Shown: positions 6,041 through 51,392, counted from the stretch's first letter. The stretch is DNA of 51,392 nucleotides from Staphylococcus phage MVC_VPHSA1 (OR670591.1); one strand, 5' to 3'. Numbers and translations: made by a program. Notes: generated by a model not told the origin, from the sequence alone.

Positions 6041-6069
6041 ATCTTACCATAGTCATACCAGCAGGTCAA
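6041..6069 (-). promoter_or_regulatory. sigma-A-like promoter on minus strand (TTGACC-17-TAAGAT) with GGTATGAC element in spacer
   Basis: Reverse complement of 6041-6072 reads TTGTTGACCtgctGGTATGACtatggTAAGAT. It is nearly identical to the + strand promoter at 36828. Confidence 0.55.
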
Positions 6070-23609: not shown

Positions 23610-23638
23610 TTGACACCAAAGTATGACCATAGTAATAT
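23610..23638 (+). promoter_or_regulatory. sigma-A promoter TTGACA-17-TAATAT with AGTATGAC in spacer, preceded by TTTTGTAGAAAATTGTTG
   Basis: Perfect -35 and near-consensus -10. GTATGAC lies at 23621-23627. Confidence 0.6.
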
Positions 23639-36827: not shown

Positions 36828-36856
36828 TTGACACTCTGGTATGACTGTAGTAAGAT
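36828..36856 (+). promoter_or_regulatory. sigma-A promoter TTGACA-17-TAAGAT with GGTATGAC in spacer
   Basis: Near-identical to the minus-strand promoter at 6041-6069. Confidence 0.55.
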
Positions 36857-38738: not shown

Positions 38739-38766
38739 TGCACCAAAGTATGACTAGAGTAATACA
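38739..38766 (+). promoter_or_regulatory. sigma-A-like promoter TTGCAC-16-TAATAC with AGTATGAC in spacer
   Basis: GTATGAC lies at 38749-38755. Confidence 0.45.
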
Positions 38767-44290: not shown

Positions 44291-44502
44291 ATGAAAAAGT
44301 TAAATCAGTGGCGTTTCAATTAGCAGACCCTATGGAGTTCAAGCTGTTCCATTTCTCAATGAAGCAGTCATACTTTTCAACATACGTGAAGCGACTTATA
44401 CAGCGTGACATGGAGCAAGGCAACCAAATGTTTTCTCATGAGTGGGAATCAGCTTATGAGGACTATATGGCAGACCCAAAAGAATATTTGAAAAACCTCT
44501 GA
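44291..44502 (+). CDS. hypothetical protein (~70 aa; frame change in AAAAAG 44294-44299)
   Basis: RBS GGGAGGT before the ATG at 44291. Confidence 0.35.
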
Positions 44503-44503
44503 G

Positions 44504-44531
44504 CCCTTGCCCTGCAAGGGTTTCTTTTGTT
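44504..44531 (+). terminator. rho-independent terminator
   Basis: Perfect hairpin CCCTTGC-cct-GCAAGGG followed by TTTCTTTTGTTT. Confidence 0.65.
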
Positions 44532-44576
44532 TGTCGAGAAATGTCGAACGAATAAGTTAAAATAATTAAAAAAATG

Positions 44577-44606
44577 TTGCAACTTTAGTAAACACCCTGC
44601 ATAATA
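44577..44606 (+). promoter_or_regulatory. promoter TTGCAA-N4-TAAACAC-N3-TGcATAATA (extended -10), followed by GGTATGAC at 44635-44642
   Basis: Near-identical architecture to the promoter at 48174. Confidence 0.55.
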
Positions 44607-44669
44607 TGAAGCACAGAGCAAGACAACACCTCAAGGTATGACTGAGGTAAAACCAAAGGAGGCAACAAA

Positions 44670-45905
44670 ATGGATAACTTAACGATTGTACAGGAGCAAG
44701 CTAATACGTTTACTATTGCAGGTGCAAAATTCAAATTAGTTAATGAAATTTCTGTCGAGGCTATGGCAAAAATGGAGCAAATTATCAGTATCAACGAGCA
44801 AGAAATACCTATACCGCAATATATGTTTGAAAGACTTGGCAGAGGTCACTGTGGAGGCACTTGGGCTATCAGTGACACACACGTACTCAAAGTAAATGAA
44901 ATACACAATAGAGCTGATATAGACATGGACCGCTTTGTTGATGGCGAGTGTCTGGAAACTCTACAAGGTTTACCAATGACTCCAAAGTTATACGCTTACT
45001 CAGAGTGCAAACAGTACATGGTGGTTGAGAGACTTTACGGTATGCAAACTGGAGAGGTAATGTACAATATGAATGCTTTCCCAGCAAAGATGGGACTCTC
45101 AATAGTACCTCAATTGTTTGATTGGAAACACTGGATACAACAAATTAACGAGTTTGTCCGAGAGAGCTGTAAACGTGGTTGGAATCCAAAGGACCTACAC
45201 GGAGAAAACTTGATGCTGACTAGAGAGGGAAAGATAGTCATTGTAGATTATGGACTATTCGAAAAGCATGGAGTACACAACAACGGAATAAGAAGCAAAT
45301 GGAGTTTTGATGAGGAGATAAAAGAAATGACTCGTCAAGTCAAGAAAATAGCTAAAGAGTTGCTTCCAAACGACTTCTCAGAAATTAACCAATATGTTGC
45401 ACCTAACTTGTGTACTTGGGAGGAGTTTCAAAAGCCAATCGAGAAAGAAGCTAAGGAGATTGTCAAGCGCTATAGTTTGACTGCTCATCTTGATGCTGAG
45501 GGGTATGACCAAGGTAACACTAGAGGAGATATTGCTGACTTTCTAGAAAAGTTTTGCCAACCAGTCGAAATCCCAAAAGCTGAGCCATTCAAGCCAATAG
45601 TTATTGACTGGGGACACCACAGAGGCAGCATACGACACATTGGAGCTGCTAAACACCAAGCCCTTAACCCAGTAGCCAATGCTGCATTATTTCAAGATAT
45701 TCGACCTCTTGTAAGCTTTCACTTGAATGACGGAGGAGTAATCAGAGAGCTAAAGGACTTACAAATTAAACCTGTTGAGCCAGTGAAATTCCCTAAGATT
45801 GAGTTTGATGTTGACAATGCAGTTAAGCAATTAGAAAAAGCTGCTGGTGGCTTCAAAGCATTATTCCAAAATATCAAAGGAGTGAAGAATAATGAGTTAT
45901 TTTGA
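44670..45905 (+). CDS. protein-kinase-like (APH/ChoK/eukaryotic-like kinase fold) protein, 411 aa
   Basis: Gly-rich loop GRGHCGG, lysine context VLKV, Brenner-type catalytic motif DLHGENLML, and DFG-like IVIVDYG. RBS AAAGGAGG. Confidence 0.5.
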   Translation: MDNLTIVQEQANTFTIAGAKFKLVNEISVEAMAKMEQIISINEQEIPIPQYMFERLGRGHCGGTWAISDTHVLKVNEIHNRADIDMDRFVDGECLETLQGLPMTPKLYAYSECKQYMVVERLYGMQTGEVMYNMNAFPAKMGLSIVPQLFDWKHWIQQINEFVRESCKRGWNPKDLHGENLMLTREGKIVIVDYGLFEKHGVHNNGIRSKWSFDEEIKEMTRQVKKIAKELLPNDFSEINQYVAPNLCTWEEFQKPIEKEAKEIVKRYSLTAHLDAEGYDQGNTRGDIADFLEKFCQPVEIPKAEPFKPIVIDWGHHRGSIRHIGAAKHQALNPVANAALFQDIRPLVSFHLNDGGVIRELKDLQIKPVEPVKFPKIEFDVDNAVKQLEKAAGGFKALFQNIKGVKNNELF

Positions 45906-46434
45906 GATTAAAGCTACTGAGTTTAAAAGTCTGAATAGGTATTTTACTAAAGTAATGTATGACCTAGGTGTTACCTTGAAGCTTTGCCCAGAGTGCCACA
46001 AAGACAATGCAGCCTTTTGGAATCACAAGGAAAAGCCAATGACAATCGAACTAGATGGTAACTATGCAAGAATAAATAATCTGTACCACTTGACAGCACT
46101 GGCTCATGAATTAGGTCACGCTGCTCAGAACGCTGATAAAGGTTTTACTAGTAATAATGATGCACTAGCACACTTTGGAGTACACGAGGCAGAAATTGAC
46201 GCTTGGGAGCGTGCCTTCCATATGTGCGCTGAGGCTGGTTTCACTAAAGAGCAAATGTATATGACTTATGATGACATGCTCGATGCTCTACCAGCTTACT
46301 TCTCAGAGCAAGGGCTCGATTGGAGTCTATATGTAGCTATGAGAGTTGATGCAAAGCCAAAACTGCTAGAACTGGACTATGCGCTGGCACGCTGTCGAGT
46401 AGCATTTTTGGAAGCTTTAAAAACTGTACAGTAA
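45892..46434 (+). CDS. HExxH zinc metallopeptidase-like protein (ImmA/IrrE, DUF955-like)
   Basis: Motif LTALAHELGHAAQN. Start overlaps the kinase stop. Confidence 0.5.
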   Translation: MSYFEIKATEFKSLNRYFTKVMYDLGVTLKLCPECHKDNAAFWNHKEKPMTIELDGNYARINNLYHLTALAHELGHAAQNADKGFTSNNDALAHFGVHEAEIDAWERAFHMCAEAGFTKEQMYMTYDDMLDALPAYFSEQGLDWSLYVAMRVDAKPKLLELDYALARCRVAFLEALKTVQ

Positions 46435-46460
46435 TTAATATTTCCAAGGAGGTAAGTCTT

Positions 46461-46879
46461 ATGCAAACTATTTGTAAAATAAAAAACATGTTAGTCAAAT
46501 GGCTGCTGGGGAGAAAAGCTTCCTCCTTGGTAAGTTTCAAGATATACCTAGCTTTATGTGGTCTTTCACGGATTACTCAAAGAAACGTCTTGCTGGTCGT
46601 GGAATCAGTGAGACAGACTTCAAAGCATTATTTACAAAGTATGACCTTATCGAGTTTCATGTAGGTGACCACGGAAAGGGAGGCGACCCACGCATTCTGC
46701 TACGCAGTCGCACTACTACTGAGAAATATAACTTTGAGGTGTGCGCTGTGTTTTCTCTCAGAGACGCACGAGTTGTGACTATATGGATTAATCACATTAC
46801 TAACCAGCATGACAACGTAGTAATGGCTAATTACACAAAAAAGTATGACATTATGCAAAACTGGAAAGGGAGGCTGTAA
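46461..46879 (+). CDS. DUF4258-like small protein (toxin-like fold; frame change near GGGGAGAAAAG 46509-46519)
   Basis: Strong RBS AAGGAGGT before the ATG at 46461. The downstream frame KKRLAGRGISETDFKALF...RVVTIWINH matches the DUF4258 pattern. Confidence 0.4.
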
Positions 46880-46939
46880 CTATGTGGATATTCTTAACTG
46901 TTTGTATTATTGCTTTAGTGGTATTGGAGATAAAAGGAA

Positions 46940-47167
46940 ATGATTAAGGTAGGCGACTCAGTAAAAGTCAAAAGCTTTTCGCTCGAAAGTGAGCATAATC
47001 CGACTGGAGAGGACGAGGGAGTTGTAATCTATATCGAGAAAGCTTTCATTAAGACTCCCTACATGCCAGCGGTACAGGTTAAGCTTGTTGGTGGGGATAT
47101 GGATAACCATAAGATAATGAGATTTACGTTTGAGGAGGTGACCAAGATTGAGGACAATGGAAATTGA
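46940..47167 (+). CDS. hypothetical protein (75 aa)
   Basis: Preceded by a 21-aa hydrophobic peptide ORF at 46883-46945. Confidence 0.35.
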   Translation: MIKVGDSVKVKSFSLESEHNPTGEDEGVVIYIEKAFIKTPYMPAVQVKLVGGDMDNHKIMRFTFEEVTKIEDNGN

Positions 47168-47603
47168 CGTAAAAGGTCATAAGGTTTGGATAGACGAGGC
47201 TATATACAATCTATTAGTAGCTGATGGCAGGACTATATATGTGCGAATGAAAAAGAATGCTCCATACTTCATTGTGAGGTGGTCAGCAAAAGAGGAAATA
47301 TACTTGCACCAACTGGTAAGAGGGAAGGCTCCAGAGGGCTATCTCGTTGACCACATAAACGGAAATACTTGTGATAATCGCTTTGAGAATTTACGGATTG
47401 TGAGTAGGACACTAAACAACTTGAATACCAAAGCAAAGAACTATGAGTTTCACCACGGTAAGTATGTTGTCTATTTCAATGTTGAAGGTAAGCGCACTCG
47501 CTATGGACGATATGAGACCGAGGAGGAAGCTATACAGCGTGTTAAAGAGGTCAGAGCTATGCTGATTCAACAATTAATCGAAAAGGGTGGTCATATACTA
47601 TGA
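47148..47603 (+). CDS. HNH homing endonuclease (HNH_3 + AP2)
   Basis: Motif VDHINGNTCDNRFENLRIVSRTLN and AP2-like motif YVVYFNVEGKRTRYGRYETEEEA. Confidence 0.8.
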   Translation: MRTMEIDVKGHKVWIDEAIYNLLVADGRTIYVRMKKNAPYFIVRWSAKEEIYLHQLVRGKAPEGYLVDHINGNTCDNRFENLRIVSRTLNNLNTKAKNYEFHHGKYVVYFNVEGKRTRYGRYETEEEAIQRVKEVRAMLIQQLIEKGGHIL

Positions 47604-47800
47604 GAAAACCAACTGTTACAGAAAGATTGACTGAGGCGTTTGACTTAATGTTTGTGGTACATGTACAGACTTATGATGACGGACGTAAACTGTTTACAGC
47701 TGAGGAGCGTGGTATCCCTTCACTGGTTACTATTGATTCGGACGGACACGTTATGATTAAAAACAATAATTCTGCTTGGTGGGATTATCTAGGAGTGTGA
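47600..47800 (+). CDS. hypothetical protein (66 aa)
   Basis: ORF with overlapping start. Confidence 0.35.
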   Translation: MRKPTVTERLTEAFDLMFVVHVQTYDDGRKLFTAEERGIPSLVTIDSDGHVMIKNNNSAWWDYLGV

Positions 47801-47804
47801 ACTA

Positions 47805-47948
47805 ATGAGAGAGCAAATACTTGACTGTCTTAACGCAGTAGATGAAATGCAAAAGAAAGTTGTTTTTCAGTCGTCAAACTGGTGGTACTTGGAAGGCTCA
47901 AAAGATGCTTATAACAACATGTTGGATGAATTGGAGGAAAACAAATGA
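47805..47948 (+). CDS. small hypothetical protein (47 aa)
   Basis: RBS AGGAGTG. Stop overlaps the next ATG. Confidence 0.3.
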   Translation: MREQILDCLNAVDEMQKKVVFQSSNWWYLEGSKDAYNNMLDELEENK

Positions 47949-48120
47949 AAAAGAAAGTAGTTAGAAGGCTCATATTAGAGCTCTCAGAGGAAGAAGCTAA
48001 TGCAATAGTTACAGCACTCGAAAGAGGAGAATACTCTGTAGATGTCAACTCTGAGGCTCGTGACATTATAGTTAGAGCACAAATTATATTGAGGGAGTTT
48101 GTTGGTGGGGTTGACCATTA
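47945..48120 (+). CDS. small hypothetical protein (58 aa)
   Basis: ORF ending inside a terminator hairpin. Confidence 0.3.
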
Positions 48121-48137
48121 GGTCAGCTCCTTTTTTA
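48110..48137 (+). terminator. rho-independent terminator
   Basis: Hairpin GTTGACC-atta-GGTCAGC followed by TCCTTTTTTA. Confidence 0.5.
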
Positions 48138-48173
48138 TCTTAATAAAAATAATTTAAACTTTTTAAAAAGTTG

Positions 48174-48202
48174 TTGCTAAAAGTAAACACTTTGCATATA
48201 CT
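48174..48202 (+). promoter_or_regulatory. promoter TTGCTA-N4-TAAACAC-N3-TGcATATACT, followed by inverted GTCATAC/GTATGAC pair
   Basis: Twin of the promoter at 44577. Confidence 0.55.
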
Positions 48203-48222
48203 AAGAGTAACAAATCAAACGA

Positions 48223-48240
48223 GTCATACCAGAGTATGAC
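48223..48240. promoter_or_regulatory. inverted repeat GTCATAC-caga-GTATGAC (operator-like)
   Basis: Palindrome of the element found in the promoter spacers. Confidence 0.45.
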
Positions 48241-48312
48241 CGAAAGGGGAACTTATAATGAACTTAAAAAACCTGAGTTAGTTGAGTATATCGCTTTAGG
48301 AGCTAAAAGTTA

Positions 48313-50446: not shown

Positions 50447-50530
50447 CATGAGGAAGTTTATTGACTATAGAGGTTGAAACTCAATCGTATCAATGGTTGA
50501 GGGAGACTCAGAAGGTGGGTCTAATTAGTT

Positions 50531-51392
50531 CACCTTTCCCTCGATGCGGTCAACCTCTAGCAAGTACGATACAGAACTTTAAAAGGAGGAAATCCGTATG
50601 AATAACCATGAGAAGGCGCTAATTGGACGACTCAAAAGAACGCCCTTGAGGTAGCCGAGGAGATTAACAACATGCAGTATGACAAGTCTAGGAAAAGCAA
50701 GGCTGAGCTAGTGAGGAAGCACCTTGGAGAAGCCACTATTATATGCGGTGCTATCAAGAAAGACACTGGTAAGATATGCACAGCTGCCCCTGTGGAGGGT
50801 TCTAAGAGGTGTGCTATACATGGAGGCTACTCTACAGGTCCAGCTACAGAGGAGGGCAAACAGAGAGCCCTAGCTAACCTATCTCCACAGGCTAATATGA
50901 TACACGGTATATATTCACGCTTTGTATTTACTACTGAGGAGAGTGACTTCTATGCATATATGATGAGTGCATATGAGGAAGCATACGACCTAGACTTAGC
51001 TAACCTGATGCTGCTAGACAGAGCACTAAGAAACTTCATACTCAACCAACGTAAAGAGATAGCACTGGCTGGTGAGCAGGTAGATGAGAGCAATAGCTAC
51101 AACGATTATGATACTAAGTTCCTACGTTACATGCAAGCTCTTGGCTTTGACCGTAAGTTTAACATGAGTAAGGAGAACAAGAACAACAAGGGAGACAATA
51201 CTGTTGTGTTAAACCAATTGTTTGACTTTGGAGACGATAACTAACAACTTCCGATAACCTTAATTATGTAAACTAAGGAATCGCTTAACCATGCGGTTTT
51301 GTTTGCTTATTCGCTTTTTATGCAAAGTTGACTGTATGGTTATGCAACTTCCTTGAATAATTATGAGACCCACCCACCCTCTCAAGCACGCA
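50531..51392. repeat. right copy of direct terminal repeat (truncated by window end)
   Basis: Identical to 25-888 apart from a G-run length difference and a boundary indel. Confidence 0.85.
50672..51244 (+). CDS. second copy of putative terminase small subunit gene (within terminal repeat)
   Basis: Protein identical to 168..740. Confidence 0.4.
   Translation: MQYDKSRKSKAELVRKHLGEATIICGAIKKDTGKICTAAPVEGSKRCAIHGGYSTGPATEEGKQRALANLSPQANMIHGIYSRFVFTTEESDFYAYMMSAYEEAYDLDLANLMLLDRALRNFILNQRKEIALAGEQVDESNSYNDYDTKFLRYMQALGFDRKFNMSKENKNNKGDNTVVLNQLFDFGDDN

Follow-up and report, generated by a model that had tools for sequence, protein, structure and literature searches.

A kinase–BECR gene pair with an optional zincin gene in Staphylococcus phage MVC_VPHSA1 and related phages, and its possible role in host takeover or counter-defence

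The kinase gp0.7 of phage T7 (T7K) acts promiscuously in counter-defence and host shut-off, and its mass phosphorylation disarms many bacterial defences; its homologues have been reported mostly in Autographiviridae, and Bacillus is not mentioned in that paper (PMC13645617). RegB of the lytic phage T4 is an endoribonuclease of RelE/YoeB fold that inactivates mRNAs and has no antitoxin partner (PMC3014915). The DUF4258 family, which has been reported in Caudovirales (PMC3482391), belongs to the RelE/ParE or colicin-like BECR superfamily and overlaps Ntox49, and its function is untried experimentally (PMC11980606). Here we describe a locus in the 51,392 bp record 'Staphylococcus phage MVC_VPHSA1' (OR670591.1), the whole of which was analyzed and is called the window below, where genes for a kinase, a zincin metallopeptidase and a BECR-fold protein lie side by side. 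We document its gene structure, the folds and the conservation of catalytic residues, gene order and adjacency, restriction to phage or probably phage contigs and promoter conservation. The initial annotation did not know this combination of genes as a described phage module, and we found no paper on it. Because of the analogy with T7K, T4 RegB and the protease domain of ArdC, we put the probability that the triad encodes host-directed effectors for takeover or counter-defence at about 0.5.

All three open reading frames (ORFs) are real, spanning 44670-45905, 45892-46434 and 46499-46879 as read in the record, the last of which is extended upstream below (RBS, ribosome-binding site).

44670-45905, + strand: gene 1, minimal eukaryotic-like protein kinase; core, residues 1-268 (nt 44670-45473); C-terminal tail, residues 269-411 (nt 45474-45902)
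44655-44662, + strand: RBS of gene 1, AAAGGAGG
45892-46434, + strand: gene 2, small stand-alone zincin metallopeptidase with HELGH at residues 72-76 and E101; 14 nt overlap with gene 1
45876-45882, + strand: RBS of gene 2, AAAGGAG
46461-46879, + strand: gene 3, basic protein of BECR fold (RelE/MqsR/YoeB/colicin E5-like), putative endoribonuclease; RBS AAGGAGG at 46446-46452
46481-46486, + strand: A6 homopolymer within gene 3

The true start of gene 3 is the ATG at 46461, which has the strong RBS upstream, and the record can be read in frame only from the ATG at 46499. In alignments, the A6 run carries a 1 nt deletion relative to the A7 of Bacillus cereus phage DZ1, phage Anath and an independent 51.9 kb assembly (L035), and in the window record only it puts the first 13 codons out of frame. 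One added A restores a 139 aa protein with the conserved N-terminus KKHxSQM. The run is either a homopolymer sequencing error or a genuine strain-specific lesion.

A kinase–BECR pair as the conserved core

Every fetched locus was scanned with hidden Markov models of the three families. Many of the loci were reached by way of gene 2 or gene 3, and one phage family accounts for most of them. Pattern-based locus searches could not use the broad alignments (A5 and A3), which were too diverse. The kinase gene is followed by the BECR gene in 22 of the 25 kinase loci, in the same order and on the same strand, at two genome positions. The arrangements are as follows (number of loci in brackets).

Kinase, peptidase, BECR, complete (9): window, DZ1, L035, Anath, S4-2, vB_BpsS-36, 268TH004, L027/L032, L029/L030
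Peptidase, BECR at a contig edge (3): L031, L039, L040
Kinase, BECR without peptidase (13): Curly, Finn, L016, L019, GBK1, L014, L015, L023/L038, L025, L026, L028, L036, L037
Kinase alone (3): Jayan type, KKP_3916, L020 (two tandem kinases)
BECR alone (4): Tsamsa, KoopaTroopa, Jenst, L024
Peptidase alone (2): PK2, L033, both adjoining a class II ribonucleotide reductase (RNR)

The evolutionary core is the kinase–BECR pair, and the peptidase gene is an optional insert between its two members. The pair is flanked by the endolysin and DnaB genes in L025 and L028, instead of following FtsK/Replic_Relax, and it has therefore moved as a unit. The 3′ end of the kinase gene overlaps the next gene by 14 nt (window), 10 nt (Curly), 4 nt (Finn) or 1 nt (268TH004). 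The initial annotation had seen a tight overlap of all three genes, which is true of genes 1 and 2, whereas gene 3 overlaps neither. Its idea that the locus couples phosphorylation with proteolysis is not supported, and the co-occurrence analysis that it proposed returned conserved linkage for the kinase and BECR genes but not for the triad as such.

All loci of the module that were found come from contigs that are phage or probably phage; bacterial chromosomes and recognisable prophages yielded none. A gene 3 scan of genomes representing 185,579 bacterial and archaeal species detected no relative, and the kinase scan of the same genomes returned a single relative, on a 6 kb high-coverage contig of a metagenome-assembled genome that also bears a BECR gene.

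Two further observations were made in these loci. The two tandem kinase-family copies of L020 (3148-4597) lie on a 167 kb viral contig and have no BECR gene beside them. In three contexts that are unrelated to each other (L025, 4586-4888; L028, 4777-5082; L005, 4085-4378), the BECR gene is followed one or two genes downstream by a gene for a small, stand-alone protein consisting of the NAD-ligase Ia domain (PF22745) and nothing else.

The three proteins and their nearest described relatives

The N-terminal ~268 residues of gene 1 match PHROG kinase families (phrog_18305, 'kinase', 1.2e-59; a second family, 6.4e-21) and, in NCBIfam, the LanKC/LanL kinase domains (2.7e-6), while the Pfam match to ABC1 is sub-threshold. 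The profile of a ten-member kinase-family alignment matches 633 PDB protein kinases at E<=0.01, the best of which is PKA (6.6e-10), with an alignment spanning the Gly loop to DFG. G59, G62, K74, D175, N180, D193 and G195 are invariant in the family at 23-55% identity, G57 is invariant or nearly so (10-17 sequences), and D-x-[HK]-x-x-N and [IV]-D-[YVF]-G are kept in 17/17 sequences. The recognisable kinase core of the initial annotation is thus borne out by the profile matches and by the conservation of all catalytic residues. The core kinase is very small, ~210 aa, of which ~40-60 residues follow DxG.

The unrelated C-terminal part, first estimated at ~150 aa, proved to be a lineage-specific tail of ~145 aa confined to the B. 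cereus-group clade. One version is common to the window, DZ1 and P0016; the second, in Anath and P0018, has only a short KPxxIDWG...IG motif in common with it. This motif, KPxxIDWG(H/R)...I..IG, lies at 45576-45647 of the window (tail residues ~303-326) and at a different tail position in Anath. The tail is near-neutral (isoelectric point, pI, 6.6). Ser, Thr and Tyr together make up 8.5% of the kinase against a median of 15.2%, the third-lowest value among 72 ORFs, and 4.2% of its tail, which hints at selection against self-phosphorylation. In T7-like phages, whose kinase is promiscuous, early proteins are reported to be depleted in the same residues (PMC13645617).

By sequence comparison, the gene 1 family is a remote relative of T7K. 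Aligned with hhalign, T7 gp0.7 and the kinase family give a probability of 94% (E 1.4e-7, 162 columns), and the homology, which runs from the Gly loop as far as the DxG motif, covers ~160 residues. They have the motifs LGxGH, QGxPxxPxxY and D[LM]HxxN[IV]M in common; both are phage-encoded, have His at the D+2 position of the catalytic loop and carry a separate C-terminal region after the kinase core. The two differ in the metal-binding motif, which is DPV in T7K and D-[YV]-G in the gene 1 family, and the PHROG of T7K was not among the PHROG matches of gene 1. The gene 1 tail has no similarity to the shut-off domain of gp0.7 (E 0.2), and this C-terminal shut-off/DNA-binding domain has no counterpart in the gene 1 family, in most members of which the tail is missing. 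Unlike T7K, gene 1 belongs to a siphovirus of a Gram-positive host and does not lie at the genome end.

The zincin encoded by gene 2 has the signature HExGH plus a Glu 25 residues downstream. Nine sequences at 20-25% identity have N63, H72, E73, G75, H76, E101, A104, W105, A108, G116 and Y136 invariant, which upholds the HELGH metallopeptidase motif seen initially. Its assignment specifically to the ImmA/IrrE type is not borne out: the top structural matches are M48/BepA and ArdC, and none of the nine family members matches PF06114 (M78) at E<=1; 'IrrE N-terminal-like' is the name that UniRef gives to the protein. ImmA/IrrE peptidases of family M78 resemble gene 2 in having HExxH and a downstream Glu as third zinc ligand, at a spacing of ~25-27 residues. 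An XRE/helix-turn-helix (HTH) repressor gene next door, as substrate or partner, would be expected of a member of that family, and none was found in the gene 2 operon or is recorded in related loci. In fold, gene 2 is similar to solved members of M48 (BepA/HtpX-like); Pfam returned no M48 match for the family, only sub-threshold matches to Zn_peptidase_2, M43 and M32 around HExxH, and the HExxH-to-Glu spacing of 25 residues is shorter than in M48. Compared with ArdC and the M48 peptidase BepA, gene 2 is much smaller (180 aa) and stand-alone, without a single-stranded-DNA-binding or tetratricopeptide repeat domain.

Relatives of gene 2 are few. A word-indexed search matched only the query itself, and an exhaustive HMMER scan of 1.84 billion protein representatives gave seven matches including the query and a spurious one, leaving about five detectable relatives. 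The spurious match, P0022, is a repetitive protein of 727 aa and was discarded, and the matches of the gene 2 profile to snake-venom metalloproteinases cover the HExxH helix only and are uninformative on the family. Searched as single sequences, genes 2 and 3 had no significant match in Pfam, NCBIfam, PADLOC or PDB. One metagenomic relative (P0024, L033 4001-4900) is fused to a T7 gp5.9 RecBCD-inhibitor domain (PF25708, 2.6e-15); its gene and the homologue of phage PK2 each adjoin the class II RNR gene, with no kinase nearby.

Gene 3 matches phrog_1905, to which no function is assigned, at 7.3e-25. It scores 14.5 bits against Pfam DUF4258 (PF14076), below the cut-off of 25, and among 14 gene 3 relatives five match DUF4258 (best 0.03) and two match BrnT at E<1. 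The DUF4258 fold named in the initial annotation is right as to fold class, which is shared with BECR, but the sequence similarity is weak and sub-threshold. Unlike the DUF4258/Ntox49 toxin domain, gene 3 does not belong to a polymorphic toxin and is accompanied by no antitoxin or immunity gene. The model predicts helices packed against an antiparallel sheet of four strands and has solved BECR members as structural matches; the Foldseek search of the model against PDB was not significant (best HigB2, probability 0.69). A PDB search with a broad gene 3 profile gave chance matches to an enterotoxin fragment only. The protein is basic (pI 9.4-9.6), R30, R65 and R69 are invariant in the broad family, and its general fold class is that of T4 RegB. 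In Brevibacillus phage Jenst (L008 3480-4773), no kinase gene adjoins JENST_108, the homologue of gene 3, whose end overlaps a putative RNA ligase gene at its start, so that an RNA-cleaving fold stands beside an RNA-repair enzyme.

Transcription unit, GTATGAC element and source phage

The following features surround or lie within the three genes (UTR, untranslated region).

44501-44533, + strand: intrinsic terminator ending the upstream unit (Replic_Relax gene and small genes); 10 bp stem with 5 G-C pairs, then a T-tract
44577-44605, + strand: sigma-A-like promoter TTGCAA-17-CATAAT of the kinase operon
44636-44650, + strand: composite motif copy in the 5′UTR, ~25 nt downstream of the likely transcription start of the kinase operon
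45503-45517, + strand: second composite copy, within the kinase-tail coding sequence, ~390 nt upstream of gene 2; ortholog in DZ1
46940-48139, + strand: remainder of the probable transcription unit, with five more ORFs, ending at a terminator at 48107-48139

The terminator placed ahead of gene 1 by the initial annotation is convincing in its stem, folding energy (44501-44523 plus T-tract, dG -15.1 kcal/mol, z -3.0) and conservation, being kept in DZ1, L035 and Anath. The kinase promoter has a consensus score of 9/12, which by itself is not above chance; its -35 and its -10 block, CCTG[CT]ATA[AG]TATGAA, are retained in DZ1, L035, Anath and L029, where the flanking intergenic sequence has diverged. 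The triad probably comprises the first genes of a co-transcribed operon of ~8 genes, because the + strand scan listed no terminator-like site with a stem of >5 bp ahead of 48107-48130. A conserved promoter thus precedes gene 1, as had been proposed, but it is not dedicated to the triad, which is not a separate transcription unit. The five downstream ORFs encode proteins of 75 aa, an HNH endonuclease (47148-47603; HNH_3 in Pfam, 1e-11) and then 66, 47 and 58 aa, and the four small ones have no Pfam matches. On the reverse strand of the region the longest ORF is <=71 aa, and none was taken as a gene. A 21-codon ORF (46882-46947) encoding a hydrophobic peptide (MWIFLTVCIIALVVLEIKGND) sits in the ~60 nt stretch that separates gene 3 from the next gene; judging from coordinates, this stretch seems to be missing in DZ1, where the flanking genes abut.

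The GTATGAC-N4-GTAA element is real. The heptamer GTATGAC occurs 25 times in the window against 5.2 expected, and the composite six times against 0.02 expected (6044-6058 on the - strand, 23621-23635, 36839-36853, 38748-38762, 44636-44650 and 45503-45517); DZ1 carries six copies at positions matching those of the window. Four of the copies occupy the spacer of strong sigma-A-like promoters, TTGACA-N5-GTATGAC-N4-GTAAGAT/TAATAT. The composite motif may be the binding site of a phage regulator, for which it is a candidate, or the signature of one promoter class. The copy at 44636, which is lost in Anath, does not lie inside the kinase promoter, as the initial annotation had it, but downstream of it. 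A structured RNA element around this copy was rejected, the hairpin being no stabler than shuffled sequence (z -1.0). The copy at 45503 may be an internal promoter or operator. At 48222-48241, past the operon terminator and just downstream of a promoter-like site (48174-48202), the same heptamer forms a perfect inverted pair, GGTCATAC-TCTG-GTATGACT, which has the look of an operator.

The phage is placed by the ICTV as Chennaivirus MVCVPHSA1 (OR670591) in the family Ehrlichviridae, which also holds Andromedavirus, Gettysburgvirus (268TH004), Anathvirus, Dazunavirus (DZ1) and Nairobivirus (vB_BpsS-36) (PMC12451628). MVC_VPHSA1 is most likely a lytic Bacillus-type siphophage. DZ1 is its closest relative in the phage collection, with 95% identity across the region, and is annotated as carrying a sigma factor of its own, Pol III alpha, RNR and ThyX, as befits a replication-competent phage, and as having no integrase or repressor. 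The relatives found all have hosts in Bacillus or closely allied genera (B. cereus, B. mycoides, B. subtilis, B. pumilus, Geobacillus), in contrast to the record name, and Staphylococcus may be wrong as the stated host. A direct terminal repeat of ~0.9 kb (1-888 and 50505-51392), which is either genuine or a redundancy from assembly, has 99-100% identity over 74-373 and 93% ungapped over 888 nt, and it duplicates a 190 aa ORF (168-740 and 50672-51244).

Host-directed effectors and the alternatives

In the favoured reading, the host cell is the most likely target of the three enzymes, and they would not act on one another. The kinase would probably phosphorylate host proteins, possibly those of defence, and the tail of the B. 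cereus-group lineage may direct it to particular targets. The zincin, with its fold nearest to M48/BepA and the ArdC protease domain, would probably cleave a host protein, and the basic, arginine-rich BECR protein would probably bind and cleave RNA in the manner of T4 RegB. Several points weigh against this proposal. The short part after DxG implies that most of the normal substrate-binding lobe is missing from the core kinase, so that a non-protein substrate could be used. Only arginines are invariant in the broad BECR family, and conservation of E52, H54 and H104, the candidate acid-base residues, is limited to the window's subfamily, so that the gene 3 protein could bind RNA or the ribosome without cleavage; moreover, the gene is frameshifted in the window record. 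The genes also occur singly (kinase in Jayan, KKP_3916 and L020; BECR in Tsamsa-like and Jenst-like phages and L024; peptidase in PK2 and L033), and most linked loci come from one phage family, so that the linkage partly reflects shared descent. We infer the substrates, the activities, including that of an RNase, and the role in takeover or counter-defence from the comparisons above, and the timing of expression from the promoter consensus.

Shared descent might account for the whole arrangement, in that three accessory genes with no functional relationship would stand side by side through common ancestry and conserved gene order. The window, DZ1, Anath, BpsS-36, 268TH004 and Andromedavirus all belong to Ehrlichviridae, shared synteny is noted in the Anath paper (PMC7368026), all three genes can also be found singly and the triad has no transcription unit to itself. 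However, the kinase–BECR adjacency persists at 23-30% protein identity while nearby small genes turn over, the pair is found at a different genome position in L025 and L028, the peptidase gene, when present, is always exactly between the other two, and the kinase gene recurrently overlaps in translation whichever gene follows; we regard this account as possible but doubtful. The linkage between the kinase and BECR genes, which is very tight, ordered and mobile, would also suit a coupled enzyme-toxin system, in which the kinase switches the BECR RNase on or off by phosphorylation or the BECR protein is an adaptor of the kinase, the zincin adding a third, proteolytic layer of control. Enzyme antitoxins, including kinase antitoxins, are known from type VII toxin-antitoxin systems. 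BECR toxins are normally paired with a dedicated neutraliser (PMC11980606), and the nearly invariant Ser70, directly after the invariant Arg69, and Thr94 of the BECR protein would be candidate phospho-acceptors. Such coupling is nevertheless unlikely: it is not obvious why a lytic phage would have to neutralise a toxin directed at its host, BECR genes occur without the kinase in Tsamsa-like and Jenst-like phages and kinases without BECR, and the Ser70 position is Gly in Jenst. An equally slim chance attaches to the idea that kinase and BECR protein form one two-enzyme device restricted to Gram-positive phages, in which the T7K-like kinase would directly control a RelE-fold RNase acting on the ribosome or on RNA, or be its target: a phosphorylation-gated attack on RNA or counter-defence with a zincin step in some lineages.

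The initial annotation had left the choice between host takeover, anti-defence and abortive infection. Takeover or counter-defence is the most likely of these, and a phage-borne module for defence, superinfection exclusion or abortive infection against competing phages is highly improbable. RelE-fold toxins, Ser/Thr kinases and HExxH peptidases are all found in bacterial defence systems, and the kinase has weak PADLOC matches to PD-T4-6 (E 0.002-0.03), but PADLOC gave no match for gene 3 and only a chance-level one for gene 2. The absence of the locus from bacterial chromosomes and recognisable prophages, the lack of an annotated integrase or repressor in DZ1 and the lack of an XRE/HTH or antitoxin-like partner in the operon or recorded in related loci argue in the same direction. 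As for a type II toxin-antitoxin system, gene 3 has neither a small DNA-binding antitoxin neighbour nor a relative in the 185,579-species genomes. A different doubt concerns the kinase, which might be a small-molecule or nucleic-acid kinase with a kinase fold (of aminoglycoside, Kdo or UbiB type), in which case the analogy with T7K would fail. Sub-threshold matches to ABC1/UbiB and Kdo kinase, His instead of Lys at the catalytic-loop D+2 position and the very short C-lobe of the core family could be read in this way. We consider it quite improbable, as the top profile matches are AGC-type protein kinases, the matched LanKC/LanL domains phosphorylate peptides, and T7 gp0.7, a proven protein kinase, has a D-M-H-x-x-N loop too and aligns with the family at high probability.

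The components are each of a known kind, while the kinase–BECR pairing and the link between a kinase of Gram-positive phages and T7K appear to be undescribed. If the genes act independently, the locus is an ordinary accessory operon, now better annotated; if kinase and BECR protein form a single two-enzyme device, it would have no described equivalent. Two orphan families, phrog_1905 and the gene 2 zincin, would gain a first functional context from the locus, and its near-constant pairing of a kinase with a RelE-fold protein, sometimes with a zincin, consists of three small genes that are easily mutated. A remote T7K homologue that is conserved throughout a family of phages of Bacillus, Geobacillus and relatives would extend the idea of mass phosphorylation to Gram-positive hosts.

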